DNA of 64,000 nt from Candidatus Aenigmatarchaeota archaeon (lineage in GTDB: Archaea; Aenigmatarchaeota; Aenigmatarchaeia; JACPZZ01). Every line of letters starts with the position of its first letter. Position 1 is the stretch's first letter. This document shows, one piece after another, positions 18,410 through 56,563 of the stretch. The position numbers and the translations under genes were made by a program. The notes under the pieces were generated by a model, which saw only the letters and a program-made list of their open reading frames with translations, made no database searches and had not been told where the DNA came from. The DNA lies in NCBI GenBank assembly GCA_016180965.1, contig JACPAF010000001.1, positions 10,111 to 74,110 of the forward strand. Direction: 5' to 3'.

Positions 18410-18490
18410 CTAGAAACATACGCTTAACAGCTAGAAGCATACCGTATACTGTATCGGTATGCTTCAGTTTACGACGCGTATGTTTCAGTT
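18410..18490. repeat. Nested pair of family hairpins upstream of tRNA-Leu
   Basis: Outer CTAGAAACATACGC...GCGTATGTTTCAGTT encloses inner CTAGAAGCATACCGTATACTGTATCGGTATGCTTCAGTT (18431-18469). Confidence 0.8.
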
Positions 18491-18512: not shown

Positions 18513-18733
18513 GCGGGGGTAGCCAAGCCCGGTCAAACTTGAGTGATGAGGTTAAGAAAACTGGCGCAACAACAAACTGACACATACATAGTATGTGTCT
18601 GGTTGCAATGCGCCTGTCTGAACAACCAATGACTAGAGGCGTCAGACTCAAGTTGAACTTTAGAAAAAAGTTTGATAGAAGAGGGAAATCTGATCTCCTA
18701 GCGAGTTCGTCGGTTCAAATCCGGCCCCCCGCA
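18513..18733 (+). tRNA. tRNA-Leu-CAA: tRNA-Leu(CAA) with D-loop intron (approx 18538-18635/7) and 37/38 intron (18653-18687)
   Basis: Exons join to GCGGGGGTAGCCAAGCCCGGTCAAA(GA)GGCGTCAGACTCAAGATCTGATCTCCTAGCGAGTTCGTCGGTTCAAATCCGGCCCCCCGCA, a typical archaeal class II tRNA-Leu. The D-loop intron has BHB core GTCA(18532-35)/TGAC(18630-33) with 3-nt bulges. Confidence 0.8.
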
Positions 18734-18821
18734 CTTTCCTTTCACTGAAAAAGCCATATTTAAACCTTGCAGAAACTCATTATTCAGTGAAAACTCAGAT
18801 AGAGTTGCGGAATTGGTGTCC

Positions 18822-25260: not shown

Positions 25261-28113
25261 TTACGGTTTTACCAGATCAAACCCGAGGAAAATCTTCACG
25301 CCTTCAAACTCCAATGTATCCGAATTACCGTGTTCGCCGTATTCTATTTTCGCTGCGCCAACTGACTTCATTATTGTTTCTTCCCATTTTCTCAATGACC
25401 GCTCGGTTTTTGGATCGGAACGGATGAACAGCAAGATCGATTCGCCCACTTCCAGTTTTTTATCCTTTCTCATTGTTTGCACCTTGCGGACCAATTCCAT
25501 TACCATGCTTTCCTCGATAAGTTCGGCGTCCATGCGTACGTCCAGGAATATTTCCGTACCGCCCGCGGATTTTGATGCCATGTCCTTCTGCGGGTGAGGA
25601 GAAAATAACAATTCTTTTACGTTTCCGGAGTTCTTTATCACATTCACCGCGCCTTCGGATATGCTGTTCTTTTGCACAGAATCGTTTTCTTGTATAACCG
25701 CCTTTCTAAGGGGCCAGCGCAACCTGACGCTGTTCTCCTGCCGCAGCGCGTTTATGGATTCCACGGCCGAACGGACAAATTCCATTTCATCCTCTATATT
25801 GGAACTCGCGCCCCCATTGGATTCGGGCCAATCCTCAAGATGCACCGATTCCTTTTTGCCTGAAACCGATTGGTAGATTATTTCAGAGATGAACGGGCAT
25901 ATTGGAGCTAATACCAACACGAGCTTGCCAAAAACGTAATACATAGTGTAGAACGCAGCGTTTTTATCCGCGCCCTCGTATGTAGGCCACGCACGGTCTC
26001 GGATTAAACGAATGTACCATCTGCTGAAATCTTTCAATACGAAATCCCGAATTAACCGGACGGATTCCGATGCATTGTACGATTCGTTGCTTTTTTTGCA
26101 CGCCGCGACGACATTGTTTATCCTGGATATTATCCATTCGTCTTCAAAATTCAATTTATCGGGTTTGGGGACTTTTTTGCAGTACGACTCCATGAATGAG
26201 AAACTGTTCCACAATGTGTTCATGATATTCATGGATTCTTTTACCGATTCCATGTTAAACGCGAAATCTTCGCCCGTCGGCAGGCCCAAAAGGTACAGCC
26301 TCAAAGCATCTCTACCGTATTTTTCTATGACCTCCTCGGGCGTTATTACATTTCCCTTTGACTTGGACATTTTCGCGCCCTTCAAATCCAAAACCTTGCC
26401 GTGCAGGAGGACATTCTTGAAAGGCGTTTTGCCGAACGTAATCATGCTTGTTATTATCTGGGAATTCCACCAGCCTCGGAATTGGTCGGGCCCTTCTATG
26501 TTCAAATCCGCGGGCCATTTTTCCTTGAATGTTTTTTCGTCTTTCGGAAACCCTATCGAAGCCCATGACGCGACTCCGGAGTCGAACCATACATCAAGCA
26601 CGTCGGGTATGCGTTTCATTTTATTTCCGCACGTGCACTTGAAAAAAACTTCATCGATGTAAGGCCTGTGCAAATCCTCGATTTCGACATTGAGCTCTTT
26701 GGACGAGCCTATGACACGAACGCTGCCGCATTTTTCGCATTCCCATATCGGAAGCGGTATACCCCAATATCTCTGCCGGGATATGGGCCAGTCGCTCAGC
26801 GTGTTTAACCAACTGTCAAAATTATTCGATGCGAATTGCGGATACCAATTGACTTTCTTATTTTCTTCGATAAGTTTTTCACGTATCGCGCTCACGCGAA
26901 AAAACCATTGCGGAACCGCGATAAATAACAATGAAGAATCACAGCGCCAGCATTTCGGGTATTCGTGCGTCGTCGGCTCGACAGCGAACAACGCATTCTT
27001 TTCCCTGAGTTTTTCTATAATTTCCTTGTCAGCGTCTTTTGCGAACATGCCTTCCAACCAACCGGCCTCCGATTTAAATTTACCTCCCATAGTCAGCGGG
27101 GATAAAACGGGTAGGCTGTGTTTCATGCCTACGAGAAAATCTTCCTTTCCGTGTCCGGGAGCCATGTGAACCAGGCCCGTGCCTTCTTCCAATGTAACGT
27201 GCTGGTCAGACGGTACGACACGACCGACGATATTTTTCTGCAACGGCAAATCGTTTAACGGGTTATCATACTCCATCCCTACTAATTGGCTGCCTTTAAT
27301 GGTTCCGATAATTTCGAAATATTCTGTTTTGCCAACGAGAACTTTCTCGGCAAGCTCTTTTGCCAGGATTAATACATCCTTGCCGGACTTTGCGCGAACG
27401 TAATCGTAATTCGGGTTGACCATGATTCCCGTGTTTGACGGCAGAGTCCACGGAGTTGTTGTCCATATTAACAGGCTGTCGTTGCTGTTTTTCACCCTGA
27501 ATTTCACATAAACCGAGTTGTCGCGTACTTCTTTGTGTTCTATTTCGTTGAACGCCACAGCGGTTTCACAATGAGGGCATACATGGACCGGATAAGAACC
27601 TTTGTAGAGCAACCCGTTTTCGAAACCTTTCTTGAACGTGAACCAAGCGCCTTCTATATAACTTTTGCTCAATGTCAAATACGGATTATCCCAATCCATC
27701 CACACGCCCAAATTTTTAAATTGGTCGTTCATTATACCCATGAATTTTGTCGCGAATTTTTTGCATTCTTCATTGAATTTCCCTATCCCGAATTTTTCGA
27801 TGTCCGACTTCGTCCTAAAGTTAAGCTCTTTTTCGATTTTATTTTCTATCGGCAATCCGTGCGTATCGTAGCCCGGTTGCATCGAAACTTCATAGCCTAA
27901 CATGCTGAAAAACCGTATGAAAAAATCCTTCAGCGTTTTGTTCATGGCTGTTCCGAGATGTATGGAACCTGTTGCGTAGGGCGGGCCGTCGAGGAAATAG
28001 TATTTTTTTGCGCCTTTCCTATTTGAAGCGTACTTCCGAAAAATATCGGATTTTTTCCATGAATCCATTGTCTGCTTTTCCAGTTCCAGCGGATTGTAGG
28101 GCCCTCTTTTCAT
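25261..28113 (-). CDS. ileS: Isoleucyl-tRNA synthetase
   Basis: 950 aa. PPYATGSIHLGTAMNK (HIGH), DWPISRQRYWGIPLP, KMSKSKGN. Confidence 0.9.
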   Translation of the reverse strand: MKRGPYNPLELEKQTMDSWKKSDIFRKYASNRKGAKKYYFLDGPPYATGSIHLGTAMNKTLKDFFIRFFSMLGYEVSMQPGYDTHGLPIENKIEKELNFRTKSDIEKFGIGKFNEECKKFATKFMGIMNDQFKNLGVWMDWDNPYLTLSKSYIEGAWFTFKKGFENGLLYKGSYPVHVCPHCETAVAFNEIEHKEVRDNSVYVKFRVKNSNDSLLIWTTTPWTLPSNTGIMVNPNYDYVRAKSGKDVLILAKELAEKVLVGKTEYFEIIGTIKGSQLVGMEYDNPLNDLPLQKNIVGRVVPSDQHVTLEEGTGLVHMAPGHGKEDFLVGMKHSLPVLSPLTMGGKFKSEAGWLEGMFAKDADKEIIEKLREKNALFAVEPTTHEYPKCWRCDSSLLFIAVPQWFFRVSAIREKLIEENKKVNWYPQFASNNFDSWLNTLSDWPISRQRYWGIPLPIWECEKCGSVRVIGSSKELNVEIEDLHRPYIDEVFFKCTCGNKMKRIPDVLDVWFDSGVASWASIGFPKDEKTFKEKWPADLNIEGPDQFRGWWNSQIITSMITFGKTPFKNVLLHGKVLDLKGAKMSKSKGNVITPEEVIEKYGRDALRLYLLGLPTGEDFAFNMESVKESMNIMNTLWNSFSFMESYCKKVPKPDKLNFEDEWIISRINNVVAACKKSNESYNASESVRLIRDFVLKDFSRWYIRLIRDRAWPTYEGADKNAAFYTMYYVFGKLVLVLAPICPFISEIIYQSVSGKKESVHLEDWPESNGGASSNIEDEMEFVRSAVESINALRQENSVRLRWPLRKAVIQENDSVQKNSISEGAVNVIKNSGNVKELLFSPHPQKDMASKSAGGTEIFLDVRMDAELIEESMVMELVRKVQTMRKDKKLEVGESILLFIRSDPKTERSLRKWEETIMKSVGAAKIEYGEHGNSDTLEFEGVKIFLGFDLVKP

Positions 28114-28194
28114 AGGTGGTCACCGAACGAATAAAATAAATGGGATGAGTTTAGATTAATCTTTGACAATTCGACTAAAAAACTGGATTTGCCG

Positions 28195-28280
28195 ACTGAA
28201 GCATACCGTATACTGAATAGGAAACCTTGGTTTCCTATTTGAGAAAACCGTAGGTTTTCTCAATATCGGCATGCTTCTGG
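28195..28280. repeat. Free-standing composite hairpin element (family arms enclosing two extra hairpins)
   Basis: ACTGAAGCATACCGTATAC...ATATCGGCATGCTTCTGG arms enclose ATAGGAAACC-TTGG-TTTCCTAT and GAGAAAACC-GTAG-GTTTTCTC. Lies between divergent ileS and the PilT-like ATPase, with no tRNA nearby. Confidence 0.7.
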
Positions 28281-28355
28281 CTGCGCATCATCCGAATCAA
28301 GATGATTTGGCTTATAAAATATAAATATAGCGAAAAACATCACTTCTCAGATACA

Positions 28356-30155
28356 ATGAAAAAATGGGTGCCGGATACTTCTGTTCTGATTAATGGAAAA
28401 CTGGCTAATCTTGTTGAGACGAACCAGGTTGAGGGAGAGATTATTATTCCCGTCACTGTGATCGATGAATTGCAGGCGCAGGCCTCGCGAGGCAAGGATA
28501 TAGGTTTCCAGGGGCTGGAGCAGTTAAAATCCGTGCGCGTGATGGCCGAAAGCGGAAAAAAGATAAAATTAATATACACGGGACGCAGGCCGACCATGGA
28601 AGAAATAATGATGGCCAAGAAAGGGCGATTAGATGCGTTAATACGCGATGTCGCAAAAGAAAACGCAGCCACGCTGATAACCGCGGATTATGTGCAAGCG
28701 CTCGTGGCGGAAGCAGAGGGCGTTTCAGTCATGTACATACAGAACGTGCGCTCGACAAGCCCGATTAAACTGGAAGACTTTTTCGATGAAAACACTTCCT
28801 CCGTCCACTTAAAGGTTGATGTTTTGCCGATGGCGAAAAAAGGGAAACCCGGACAGGTTAAACTGCTAAAAATACGCGACACGCCCATGAAAGAGGAGGA
28901 GATAGAATCGATCGTAAAGGAAATATTGGACCGTGTAAGGCACGAAAAAAACGCGTTCATCGAAATGGGTTCTGCGGGCGCGATGGTAATACAATTTGAC
29001 AAGTACAGGATTGCCGTGGCGCGCCGGCCTTTCAGCGACGGGTTAGAGCTGACTGCTGTCAGGCCGATAACCAAGCTCGTGCTTTCTGATTACAAACTTT
29101 CCGAAAAATTAATGGACCGCTTAAAAGAGCGTGCGGAAGGCGTAATTATCTGCGGGCCGCCGGGTTCCGGAAAATCCACGTTCGCCGCTTCAATCGCGGA
29201 ATATTACCTGTCTCTTGACAAGATCGTAAAGACCATTGAAAACCCAAGGGATTTGCAGGTACCTCCTGAAATAACTCAGTACGGCGCGCTGGACGGGAGT
29301 ATGGAGAAAACAGCTGACATACTGCTGTTGGTAAGGCCGGATTACACGATTTATGATGAAGTGCGAAAAACCAAGGATTTCGAATTGTTCGCTGACATGC
29401 GCATGGCGGGCGTTGGAATGGTTGGCGTGGTTCATGCGTCGAATGCGATCGATTCCGTGCAAAGGTTCATAGGCAGGATAGAAATGGGCATGATAACGAG
29501 TGTTCTGGACACGATAATATTCCTTAAGGGCGGGGAGATTAAAAAAGTTTACGAATTGCAGCTGCTTGTGCGGGTGCCGACGGGCATGATGGAAGCGGAT
29601 TTGGCCCGACCGCTGATAGAAGTGCGCGATTTTGAGACCGGCAGATGCGAGTATGAAATATACACGTACGGCGAGGAGAACGTGGTTGTTCCTGTCAATG
29701 AGACTAGCAAAGAACAGCCTGTCAGGAAATTGGCCAAAGAAAGGATATTGCAGGAGATTAGAAAGTTTGATCCGCAGGCCGAAGCTGAGGTCGTGAGCGA
29801 CAATAAAGTGATAGTCCGCGTGGATAATGAAATGGTTCCGCATATCATCGGCAAAGAGGGTAAAACCGTGATGGAGCTTGAGAAGAAGCTTGGCATATCC
29901 ATTGATATTGAGCCTTTAGCGAAGAACATGGGAAAACTTGTTTCACACAACATATCCGAATCAGGCGCATACTTGAATATTGGGTTTGATACAAGGTTAT
30001 CAGGCAAGGTTGTTTCCGTTTATGTGGACGACGAATTTTTATTATCCGCCACGGTCGGCTCGAAGGACGTAATAAAAGTTTCCAAGGACTCCGATATAGG
30101 ATCAGCTTTGATGCGGGCCGCCGTAAACAAGAAAAAAATAAAATGTTACATGTAA
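28356..30155 (+). CDS. PIN-domain / PilT-type ATPase / KH-domain protein
   Basis: Start at the ATG at 28356. N-terminal PIN-like (VPDTSVLING). Walker A GPPGSGKST. C-terminal KH-like IIGKEGKTVMELEKKLG. Confidence 0.8.
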   Translation: MKKWVPDTSVLINGKLANLVETNQVEGEIIIPVTVIDELQAQASRGKDIGFQGLEQLKSVRVMAESGKKIKLIYTGRRPTMEEIMMAKKGRLDALIRDVAKENAATLITADYVQALVAEAEGVSVMYIQNVRSTSPIKLEDFFDENTSSVHLKVDVLPMAKKGKPGQVKLLKIRDTPMKEEEIESIVKEILDRVRHEKNAFIEMGSAGAMVIQFDKYRIAVARRPFSDGLELTAVRPITKLVLSDYKLSEKLMDRLKERAEGVIICGPPGSGKSTFAASIAEYYLSLDKIVKTIENPRDLQVPPEITQYGALDGSMEKTADILLLVRPDYTIYDEVRKTKDFELFADMRMAGVGMVGVVHASNAIDSVQRFIGRIEMGMITSVLDTIIFLKGGEIKKVYELQLLVRVPTGMMEADLARPLIEVRDFETGRCEYEIYTYGEENVVVPVNETSKEQPVRKLAKERILQEIRKFDPQAEAEVVSDNKVIVRVDNEMVPHIIGKEGKTVMELEKKLGISIDIEPLAKNMGKLVSHNISESGAYLNIGFDTRLSGKVVSVYVDDEFLLSATVGSKDVIKVSKDSDIGSALMRAAVNKKKIKCYM

Positions 30156-30935: not shown

Positions 30936-31051
30936 GGATCCGTAGCTCAGCCTGGACAGAGCAGCAGCCTCCTAACGAGCTTTTCCAAAAAGCTCGACCA
31001 AAAGAGAATGGAGATAGTTGAAGGTCGCGGGTTCAAATCCCGTCGGATCCG
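30936..31051 (+). tRNA. tRNA-Arg-CCT: tRNA-Arg(CCT) with canonical 37/38 intron (30975-31015, 41 nt)
   Basis: GGATCCG..GCAGC-CTCCTA|intron|A-GTTGA..GCGGG-TTCAAAT-CCCGT-CGGATCC-G. BHB core CTCC/GGAG. Confidence 0.85.
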
Positions 31052-42971: not shown

Positions 42972-43012
42972 AACTGAAGCATATCGATAGTGCATACGGT
43001 ATGCTTCCAGTT
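42972..43012. repeat. tRNA-linked bulged palindromic hairpin (family copy)
   Basis: AACTGAAGCATATCG-ATAGTGCATA-CGGTATGCTTCCAGTT, ending 5 nt (GTGAC) before tRNA-Ala +1. Confidence 0.8.
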
Positions 43013-43017
43013 GTGAC

Positions 43018-43106
43018 GGGCCGGTAGATCAACGGTAGATCGCCACATTGGCATTGGAAAGAGACCAAAATTGTGGAGGCTTCGGGTTCGAATCCCGACC
43101 GGTCCA
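43018..43106 (+). tRNA. tRNA-Ala-GGC: tRNA-Ala(GGC) with canonical 37/38 intron (43054-43070, 17 nt)
   Basis: GGGCCGG/CCGGTCC with G3:U70. CCACA-TTGGCA|intron|T-TGTGG. BHB core TTGG/CCAA. Confidence 0.9.
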
Positions 43107-50586: not shown

Positions 50587-50622
50587 GAAGCATACCGATA
50601 CAGTATACGGTATGCTTCTAGT
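50587..50622. repeat. Family hairpin just 5' of tRNA-Ile (minus-strand sense)
   Basis: GAAGCATACCGATACAGTATACGGTATGCTTCTAGTT. The reverse complement of 50588-50622 is identical over 35 nt to 18431-18465. An additional ACTGGCG..CGCCAGT hairpin lies at 50633-50657. Confidence 0.85.
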
Positions 50623-54602: not shown

Positions 54603-54789
54603 AATTTAATCTTAGAGTATATCATAAAAAACAACCGCTCTTGACAGTCTCCGTAGCAACCGCCGACTGGACAATACCGAAAAACGATAACTATTTATAT
54701 ACGCGCATTTACATAGATTTAGTGATTTGATAATTGAGGCTGATAAAGTCAGCTTCTGGATAATTACAACTTTTGGAGGTTGAATTTGT

Positions 54790-56436
54790 ATGGTAAATGC
54801 AACAATGGGACAGATTGGCGGACAGCCTGTATTGATATTGCCCGAAGGCGCGCTGCGCTCGACTGGAAAAGATGCACAGCGCAATAATATTGCTGCTGCG
54901 AAAGCTGTCGGTGATGCTATACGAACTACGCTAGGCCCGCGAGGAATGGATAAGATGCTTGTTGACTCATTAGGCGATGTCGTTATCAGCAACGACGGCG
55001 CCACGATTTTGAGCGAGATGGAAATTGAACATCCCGCTGCAAAAATGATGGTTGAAATTTCAAAGACGCAAGACGAAGAAGTCGGCGACGGCACTACAAC
55101 TGTTGTAGTTTTAGCTGGCACAATGTTAAAGAAGGCTGAAGAACTTCTAGACCAAGATGTCCATCCTACTGTCATAACGAAAGGTTACCGCACAGCAAAG
55201 GAAAGGGCGTTGGAAGTTGTGAGAAACATTTCGAAATCTATCTCGATCAACGACGAAGAGAAGCTTGTGCAAATCGCAACAACAGCGATGAACAGCAAGG
55301 CTGTCGGAGAAAACACGGACAAATTGGCGCGGGTGATTGTCAAAGCTGTCAAAGAAATTTCCGAAACAACTGATGGAAAAACTTTGATCGACGTTGAAAA
55401 TGTAAAGCTTGAAAAGAGGCAGGGCGGCGGGATCGTAGACACGGAATTGATAAAAGGAATTGTCATCGACAAAGATGTGGTCCATCCGTCGATGCCGAAA
55501 AAATCCGAGAATGCAAAAATAGCATTATTGGACGTTGCGCTTGAAGTCAAGGAGTTGGAAACTGACGCCGAGATAAGGATAACGTCGCCGGAGCAGATGC
55601 AATCATTCCTTGCAGAGGAAGAGAGAATGCTAAAGGATATGGTTGAGAAAATCGCCGCTACCGGAGCGAATGTTGTTTTCTCCCAGAAAGGTATCGATGA
55701 TGCTGCGCAACATTACATGGCGAAGAAAGGTATTTTGGCCTCGAGGCGGGTTAAAAAGTCTGACATGGACAAATTGGCGCGCGCCACTGGAGCGAAAGTT
55801 ACGTCAAGCATAAATGACCTGAGCTCAAGCGACCTGGGTTTCGCAGGAATTGTCGAAGAGAAAAAAGTTTCCGGCGAGCAGATGGTTTTCGTGCAGAAAT
55901 GCAAGGATCCTAAAGCGGTTACGATTTTGATACGCGGCGGTTCTGAGCATATCGTTGACGAAGTCGAGCGTGCGGTTAACGATGCTATCAAAGGCGTTGC
56001 TGCGGCTGTTGAGATGGGCAAATATGTTGCTGGGGGCGGGGCGCCCGAAGCTGAAATCGCGAGACAATTGAGAAAATTAGCAGAAAGTTTCCCTGGGCGT
56101 GAGCAGTTGGCGATAAACGCGTTCGCCGATGCCATGGAAGTAATTCCGCGCACGCTTGCAGAGAACGCGGGTTTGGATACGATCGACATGTTAGTTAAGT
56201 TGCGCGCAGAGCATGACGCAGGAAATGCGTCGGCTGGTGTGGATGTTTTGAACGGCAGGATAAGCGACATGGAAAAATTAAATGTCATTGACCCGCTGAA
56301 GACAAAGATACAGGCCATAAATTCCGCTTCGGAAGCTGCGGAAATGATATTGAGGATAGATGATGTCATTTCGGCGAGCAAGTTAAACAAGGGCGGAGGC
56401 ATGCCTGCTGGCATGCCGGACATGGGCGGGGAATAG
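54790..56436 (+). CDS. ths: Thermosome subunit (group II chaperonin)
   Basis: 548 aa. [30 protein letters not shown] motifs. GGAGG about 10 nt upstream of the ATG. Confidence 0.95.
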
Positions 56437-56563
56437 AAAACCGAAGGATTTCTATTTGAGAAAATCCAAAGATTTTCTCAAAAATGTAGTATAATTTTTA
56501 GTAATTTCCTCGTTACCCGGCGATTAATAAAGTATATATTGGTAGAAAGCAAAATCTACATTA

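Follow-up and report, generated by a model that had tools for sequence, protein, structure and literature searches.

Nested mobile palindromic repeats probably account for a three-hairpin composite between divergent genes of an Aenigmatarchaeota archaeon

The three-hairpin composite between the divergent ileS and PIN-PilT ATPase genes of a Candidatus Aenigmatarchaeota archaeon probably consists of small, non-coding mobile palindromic DNA repeats nested in one another, with an element that we call B seated in the apical loop of a palindrome of family A. As a whole it looks like selfish DNA, not like a dedicated RNA gene or promoter element. Judging from genome searches, each module is a multi-copy repeat in its own right, restricted to a single genus or family of Aenigmatarchaeota. 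Comparison of filled with empty sites shows insertions into the loops of hairpins, at the ends of genes and even within an ORF. The window analysed here is a stretch of 64,000 nucleotides (G000:C2:10111-74110) of one genome, G000 (731 kb, 7 contigs, 44% G+C, 81% complete), whose closest public relatives are groundwater Candidatus Aenigmatarchaeota MAGs. Six congeners are referred to below as G001 to G006. The genomes compared are MAGs, 65-91% complete, and several composites lie at contig ends, so that all copy numbers given are lower bounds.

The region 28195-28280 of the window reads ACT-GAAGCATACCG-TATACTG-(AATAGGAAACC TT GGTTTCCTATT)(TGAGAAAACC GTA GGTTTTCTCA)A-TAT-CGGCATGCTTC-TGG, with the two inner hairpins in parentheses. 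Its parts are as follows.

28198-28277, no strand assigned: whole composite, 80 nt; family-A palindrome with element B in its apical loop, predicted to form a three-way junction
28198-28215, no strand assigned: family-A 5' half, arm GAAGCATACCG (28198-28208) plus loop remnant TATACTG
28216-28263, plus strand: element B, 48 nt, 5'-AATAG...CTCAA-3', with a terminal A after hairpin 2
28216-28239: hairpin 1 of B, AATAGGAAACC-TT-GGTTTCCTATT, perfect stem
28240-28262: hairpin 2 of B, TGAGAAAACC-GTA-GGTTTTCTCA, perfect stem
28264-28277, no strand assigned: family-A 3' half, loop remnant TAT plus arm CGGCATGCTTC (28267-28277)

The boundaries of B were set from empty sites in relatives. A sequence-only reading of this DNA had described the three-hairpin composite, and both the sequence and its folding (z -5 to -10) agree with that description. 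Every fold, whether as RNA or as DNA, is a three-way junction, and 0 of 200 shuffles are as good. As RNA the composite folds at -41.2 kcal/mol (z -5.2) on the plus strand and -46.2 kcal/mol (z -7.8) on the minus strand; as single-stranded DNA the z values are -9.1 and -10.1. The arms GAAGCATACCG and CGGCATGCTTC have a single mismatch, an A.C on the plus strand that reads G.U on the minus strand. The element-B covariance model scores 70.4 bits at 28216-28263. That no tRNA lies near the composite, as the same reading had said, also holds: the nearest Rfam tRNA (30936-31051) is 2.7 kb off. ARAGORN and Rfam found no tRNA and no other family at 28195-28280, and a tRNA or tRNA-like gene there is rejected. 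On the composite Rfam gave nothing at the gathering threshold, the best sub-threshold matches being generic hairpins of 16-20 bits against cut-offs of 48-100. Two motifs were rejected by eye: a BHB splice motif at the base of the A stem, where the unpaired bases form a facing internal loop and not staggered 3-nt bulges, and a K-turn or C/D box, the CUGA beside the arms having no partner C box.

The outer arms belong to family A. Four copies of the arm 16-mer are present in the window, where 0.27 would be expected, and the 11-mer GAAGCATACCG occurs 28 times in the 731-kb genome against about 0.35 calculated by chance. G000 holds 21 canonical 32-nt copies of the palindrome, in which the arm and its complement stand exactly 21 nt apart (GAAGCATACCG-N10-CGGTATGCTTC), and there are arms with compensatory variants, for example GAAACATACCG/CGGTATGTTTC and GAATCATACCG/CGGTATGATTC. 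Copies are found against tRNA genes, within tRNA introns and stacked in one another. Three hairpins of the family in the window may serve as a reference.

18434-18465, no strand assigned: uninterrupted family-A reference hairpin GAAGCATACCGTATACTGTATCGGTATGCTTC, nested in an outer stem upstream of a tRNA
42976-43007, no strand assigned: family-A hairpin, 10 nt upstream of the tRNA at 43018
50587-50618, no strand assigned: uninterrupted family-A hairpin, adjoining a tRNA gene on the minus strand

The window also contains a tRNA-like gene at 18513-18735 (5' end GCGGGGGTAGCCAAGCCCGG, 3' end GGTTCAAATCCGGCCCCCCGCA) that ARAGORN and Rfam do not call at gathering threshold because of a long insertion. 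At G000:C2:236590-236680, about 100 nt upstream of the sole TnpB gene of G000, lies a hairpin GCGGGC...GCCCGC-CAGATGAATTGC. This left-end hairpin of the TnpB element has a loop occupied by a family-A mini-hairpin (GAAGCATATCAAAGGTATGCTTC); the copy beside the IS of G005 is intact (GCGGGC-TTCA-GCCCGC). The mini-hairpin is apparently a further case of loop targeting.

Element B, the inner hairpin pair, is an independent repeat of 48-52 nt with two hairpins, 5'-A[AT]TAG...CTCAA-3', found naked or inside A loops. Searching the genome for each module returned further copies of both, and the earlier proposal that the composite is built from two separately repeated modules stands, the outer arms being those of the 32-nt palindrome family. 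We count about 7 copies of B in G000 and 2 to about 14 strong loci per genome in the genus. An arm-to-arm spacing of 69-71 nt is seen at exactly three loci of G000 (28198-28277 of the window, C6:1377-1457 and C7:29001-29082). These are the composites, and they have common junctions, GAAGCATACCGTATACTG^AATAG...CTCAA^TATCGGTATGCTTC, where ^ marks a junction. The following copies in G000 lie outside them.

56432-56481 of the window, plus strand: naked B, without family-A arms, at the thermosome stop; 64.6 bits with the covariance model
C2:228132-228182: naked B upstream of ftsZ
C5:15952-15999: B variant between two tRNA genes
C5:24978-25032: truncated B, still attached to one family-A arm

The covariance model of B was built from 26 aligned copies, and the composite was also run by BLAST. 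The model detects B in all seven genomes of the genus (G000 and the six congeners), gives one weak match in the sister genus and has none at E <= 0.001 in the 53 further genomes of the class that were searched. B copies are most numerous in G005, 3-4 of them being identical; this genome also has 20 TnpB. In G004 no composite was detected by BLAST. In five genomes hairpin 2 is confined to B and hairpin 1 very nearly so, and a reversed control pattern gave 0 matches. Since the two hairpins occur essentially only together, B appears to be the whole unit and not the two ends of a longer element; a longer autonomous parent with hairpins 1 and 2 at opposite ends was not found. Exact-pattern scans of IMG/VR for A and B gave chance matches only, none with a partner arm or hairpin, and a viral vector is rejected on this basis. 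One composite of 81 nt is identical, loops included, in G000 (C6:1377-1457) and G006 (C7:5037-5121), at non-orthologous loci whose flanks are 67-76% identical. This suggests either recent exchange between co-occurring populations or strong constraint. The stems of the elements are far more conserved than the loops, and stem conservation together with the identical composite may reflect functional constraint as well as recent exchange. A full-text literature search found no published description of A or B repeats in Aenigmatarchaeota.

Filled and empty sites can be paired at the thermosome, tnpA and ftsZ genes and in A loops, and in all of these settings the insertions of B are seamless and without target-site duplication. 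First, at the thermosome 3' end G000 reads GGGG^AATAG..CTCAA^AAATGTAG, while G002 and G006 read GGGGAAATGTAG/TAA with no element. The recurrence of the inner module at this gene had been noticed before, although as a copy of the second hairpin alone, and it covers both (56432-56481). Nor does it lie just downstream of the stop, as had been claimed: the AATAG of the B copy itself supplies the TAG (56434-56436), which falls in the last thermosome codons and ends the protein one residue early. The old end of the gene is still present.

56484-56489, plus strand: relic ATGTAG, the old last codon and stop of the thermosome gene, pushed downstream by B

A decayed hairpin occupies the same GGGG^ point in G003, which is not the sister of G000, and this hints at an insertion hot spot. 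At the other end of the gene, the thermosome promoter and leader (TTTATATACGCGCATTTACATAGATTTAGTGATT; window 54700-54790) are conserved and are followed by a species-specific small hairpin in the 5' leader: GCTGA-TAAAG-TCAGC in G000, CAAACTTC-ACC-GAAGTTTG in G006 and GGCGGGC-AAC-GCCCG in G005. The leader of G002 has a full element B and then a scaffold gap. The 5' leader may be either a "hairpin slot" or an insertion hot spot.

Second, the Y1 tnpA gene of G006 reads GTGCA^B^CCAC within its N-terminal codons, and B (C5:95321-95368) brings a TGA; the intact Y1 gene of G005, on the minus strand, has the empty site GTACACCAC (MEEFVHSAHAIGNNVHHIEWCTKYRY...). This junction is unambiguous and fixes B as ATTAG...CTCAA, 48 nt. 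The transposase gene of G006 is evidently disabled by a non-autonomous repeat. Third, the site upstream of ftsZ is filled in G004 and G006 and empty in G005 and G001 (AACAGT^TGGAC, with 1-nt ambiguity), and G000 and G002 have an independent B copy in unrelated sequence upstream of ftsZ. The same upstream region contains repeated TCTGGACAAC-like boxes, conserved across both genera (G004-G007), which may be regulator sites, and several single hairpins, AGGAAAC..GTTTCCT, similar to hairpin 1 of B. The ftsZ ORF is called at 312 aa in G000 and at about 384-421 in relatives.

Fourth, A loops have been entered at CTG^B^TAT in G000, G001, G002, G003 and G006, at CGTA^B^TACTG in G005, G003 and the truncated copy of G000, and in a third context in G002:C3. 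Complete composites have empty counterparts as well. In G002:C35 an A+B composite with ACTG.../...CTAGTTA feet lies in the loop of a hairpin that is simple in G000 (C2:97477), and in G002:C30 a three-level nest stands 2 nt past a stop codon where the G000 site (C2:69393) is empty. A further composite of G000 lies 15 nt past the 3' end of the 23S rRNA; the trailers of G006, G001 and G005 lack it although they can otherwise be aligned. These pairs indicate that A and B also travel together, as one composite. Target preference is weak: G^T is found at 3 of the 5 resolved junctions, and in 9 of 15 copies the TTGAG end is preceded by CA. The 23S rRNA 3' trailer of G000 (C6, 1363-1700) is crowded with nested family-A hairpins in addition to the composite. 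The trailer blocks GAACTCGGTCCTAAAA.. and GCCTGCCTGTGATTTTATTTTTATTT are common to G000, G006, G001 and G005, each of which has different hairpin insertions.

The composite at 28198-28277 lies between ileS (ORF 25261-28113, minus strand, start at 28113) and the PIN-PilT ATPase gene, upstream of both putative TATA-like boxes.

28130-28141, minus strand: putative TATA-like box of ileS, conserved in most congeners, outside the composite
28312-28329, plus strand: putative TATA-like box of the PIN-PilT ATPase gene, AAAATATAAATAT block, in six of six congeners, outside the composite

The presumed promoter role of these boxes follows from their AT-rich conservation and spacing. The PIN-PilT ATPase ORF is called from the ATG at 28302. 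Its orthologues align from residue 1 at the ATG at 28356, about 27-44 nt after the conserved TATA-like block, and this second ATG is the more likely start, of a leaderless or short-leader transcript. G004:C23 has a different small hairpin (AAAACCTGA-AGCG-TCAGGTTTT) within the conserved TATA-like block of its PilT promoter.

The spacer is syntenic in all six congeners (PilT 82-96% identical), and the composite is complete in G000 only. It is absent from the spacer of G001 and of G003 to G006. The closest relative, G002, retains a solo 5' arm: its spacer reads CGGCTGAAGCGTACCG (5' foot and arm, including CTGAAGCGTACCG) and then has a deletion that also took about 30 nt of native sequence retained by G000 and the others. 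The solo arm and the loss of these native nucleotides indicate that the insertion is older than the split of G000 and G002 and is decaying in G002. The sequence-only reading had offered a locus-specific three-way-junction RNA or a promoter-embedded element. The conservation expected of a cis-regulatory element specific to the ileS-PilT locus is not seen among G001-G006, and this part of the reading finds no support. The effect of the composite here is probably limited to a wider promoter spacer: counted on the alignment, the two TATA-like boxes stand about 170 nt apart in G000 and about 98 nt apart in G006.

The pairing pattern bears on whether the hairpins are held at the level of DNA or of RNA. 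In the 26 B copies 97.3% of cells are paired, and double changes occur at 14 of 21 pairs; none of 500 shuffles does as well, and slid controls reach 32-57%. Twelve composites from five genomes have 98.6% of cells paired over three helices. The three-way-junction fold that had been predicted at 28195-28280 is to this extent supported. The pairing is also strict, with 528 of 546 pairs Watson-Crick and 3 G.T against 3 A.C, and no tolerance of wobble on either strand. Such strictness is suggestive of a palindrome held at the DNA level, as a single-strand hairpin, a cruciform or through arm-to-arm copying, and a Watson-Crick-only pattern seems atypical of a diverging RNA family. Because the copies are young, the argument for DNA is suggestive and not decisive.

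One rival is a gene for a small structured RNA without coding function, a three-way-junction RNA of which each genome would have a few copies, its hairpins being kept for an RNA function such as protein binding or processing; we consider it improbable. Several observations are consistent with such a gene, among them the very stable fold on both strands, the three helices kept across the 12 composites with compensatory changes in each, the conserved stems with variable loops and the identical 81-nt copy in two species. In addition, the copy past the 23S rRNA 3' end lies close enough to be probably transcribed, and the only mismatch of the arms is a G.U on the minus strand. However, positional conservation is wanting, since both the ileS-PilT copy and the rRNA-trailer copy, the latter in three relatives, are missing, and G004 has no detected composite at all. 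The inner unit also sits in a transposase ORF and in the last thermosome codons. The counts of G.T and A.C show no wobble enrichment and no strand bias, the copy at 28198-28277 lies upstream of both flanking TATA boxes without a conserved promoter of its own, and there is no Rfam match. The same observations give no support to an RNA specific to this locus.

Alternatively, the hairpins could have been adopted by the host as cis signals, namely bidirectional terminators, stabilisers of mRNA ends or an insulator between divergent promoters. We give this a similarly small chance as a general account. Each hairpin has TTTT(C)T on both strands, and the stop codons of B are TAG on one strand and TGA on the other. 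B or related hairpins lie right at the thermosome stop in G000 and G003, three other hairpins lie past the stop in G004, and some hairpin is present in the thermosome 5' leader of every species. B has also come to stand upstream of ftsZ in two lineages by independent insertions. For bacterial REPs, roles of this kind in transcription termination and mRNA stabilisation are described (PMC3733652), which counts in favour of this possibility. On the other hand, five of six relatives dispense with the ileS-PilT element, the T runs are only four long and lie within stems, B occurs in both orientations relative to genes, and in G006 it destroys tnpA. Individual copies, such as those at the thermosome end and in the ftsZ leader, may serve the host in one of these ways, as terminator, stabiliser or insulator; at ileS-PilT this is unsupported. 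Finally, the palindromes could be bound by a dimeric protein, a regulator or a nucleoid protein, the composite being an operator cluster in a divergent promoter. This would suit the perfect dyad symmetry of the half-sites, the position between two promoters and the many intergenic copies. It is nevertheless very improbable given that compensatory changes keep the pairing while altering the bases that such a protein would recognise (in hairpin 1 AAAACC to TTTGCT, in the A arms G to A/T), that copies lie in tRNA introns, the rRNA trailer and coding ends, and that orthologous promoters show no conservation.

For the nested mobile repeats that we prefer, the following course may be proposed. The 48-nt B would have entered the loop of a 32-nt A, and the joined A+B would then have reached several loci together. 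The copy at 28198-28277 would have entered in the common ancestor of G000 and its nearest relative and later have been mostly deleted in that relative. The elements may move as folded single-stranded DNA, in a manner like the "peel and paste" of HUH/Y1 enzymes, or by copying between palindromes. Their preferred targets would be DNA that is often single-stranded, that is, hairpin loops and the borders of highly transcribed tRNA, rRNA and thermosome genes. Properties in common with HUH/Y1- and REP-like elements are the seamless junctions, the hairpin ends, the occurrence in both orientations and the location in loops and at the borders of heavily transcribed genes. Granted mobile hairpin repeats, a single-strand HUH-like route is the mode that we tentatively put first, at somewhat less than an even chance, with copying between palindromes as the alternative.

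No cognate mobilising enzyme for A or B was found in the family genomes. PF01797 (Y1) has no match in G000, a genome 81% complete, and matches in 2 of 8 family genomes (G005 and G006). The Y1 IS copies carry end hairpins unrelated to B, and one of these copies is broken by B. TnpB matches come from 6 of 7 congeners and from the sister genus, and none of them adjoins B. A copy in G006 abuts the Y1 gene, and B was considered as the left end of an IS200/IS605 element; this is rejected, B lying inside the tnpA frame and G005 showing the empty site. B as the upstream end of a TnpB gene was likewise rejected, as the 405-421-aa genes past naked B are ftsZ and no B copy adjoins a TnpB match. Reverse transcriptase genes are found in 2 of 8 genomes, not in G000. 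RNA-mediated spread is considered unlikely, reverse transcriptase being rare and the copy being upstream of both promoters.

Comparison with known systems may help to place A and B. Bacterial REP, BIME and REPIN sequences, which go with RAYT (TnpA-REP) proteins, are, like A and B, short multi-copy non-coding palindromes, mostly in intergenic regions and at gene ends (PMC2817692, PMC3333891, PMC3116915, PMC3733652). They also resemble A and B in forming single, dimer and composite mosaics, in compensatory changes within families and in occasional intragenic copies. Family A is, as REPs are, a palindrome of 20-40 bp in many mainly extragenic copies, while B has about 7 copies, some of them overlapping coding ends. 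REPs have a conserved unpaired GTAG or CGTC tetranucleotide at one end (PMC3733652); A starts with GAAGC and B with A[AT]TAG/TGAG, and both starts are paired in stems. A RAYT system would have its cognate Y1 HUH gene in the genome, usually with REPs on either side, whereas G000 has none and those of 2 of 8 family genomes are IS200-type with unrelated hairpins. A and B belong to a DPANN archaeon, whereas REP systems are bacterial, and they nest in each other's loops, whereas BIMEs are tandem rows of alternating units. B consists of two AT-rich hairpins joined head to tail, and the low copy numbers (about 21 A and about 7 B) are unlike those of REPs.

B shares with IS200/IS605 elements and their miniature derivatives (PATEs) the absence of target-site duplication and of classical terminal inverted repeats, the hairpin ends and the occurrence in both orientations, and IS200/IS605 genes are present in its lineage: Y1 TnpA in G005 and G006, TnpB in 6 of 7 congeners and the sister genus. 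A PATE would have the end hairpins of an autonomous IS of the lineage, but the hairpins of the resident IS (GCCCTATCA.., CCCCGCAC.. and GCGGGC..) are unrelated. Unlike IS200/IS605, B is only 48-52 nt long, consists of nothing but two hairpins and appears to have a weak CA^ or G^T preference in place of a conserved 4-5-nt target. One Y1 gene is its victim, not its partner. A classical MITE would have terminal inverted repeats and target-site duplications; none of the resolved B junctions has a duplication. The REP-targeting IS (IS1397, ISKpn1, ISPpu9/10) are mobile elements that insert specifically into palindromic repeats and likewise yield nested composites (PMC1525189, PMC12288879); they are full-length and have their own transposase, whereas B is 48 nt and non-coding, and whole A+B composites also invade A loops. 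B also differs from a further kind of small repeat in what it does to reading frames, ending a frame with its own stop (thermosome) or breaking the gene (tnpA). The Rickettsia palindromic elements are small palindromic repeats of 100-150 bp tolerated in protein genes, where they are read through in frame.

What looked like a novel three-way-junction RNA is thus a documented case of repeat-in-repeat nesting, and such stable folds should not be annotated as ncRNA genes. B would be a second mobile hairpin element in Aenigmatarchaeota, defined with exact empty sites, and it is among the smallest mobile elements with mapped junctions: 48 nt, seamless and with its own stop codons. Its presence is tolerated in the last codons of a gene for an essential chaperonin, and it inactivates a transposase gene. 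It is conceivable, if at present speculative and rather unlikely, that A and B represent a class of ultra-small (32-50 nt) hairpin transposons of DPANN archaea that insert seamlessly into single-stranded loops (each other's, those of IS ends and those of tRNA genes) with the help of a trans-acting enzyme beyond current transposase profiles. If this is true, the same process would give rise to non-canonical introns in archaeal tRNAs and to portable stop-codon and 3'-end modules. In genomes of about 0.7-1 Mb, in which spare DNA is scarce, A and B appear to alter UTRs, promoters, the flanks of rRNA and tRNA genes, and gene ends from one close species to the next. The two elements offer a concrete substrate for asking how archaeal tRNA genes gain introns and which enzyme recognises folded DNA loops.
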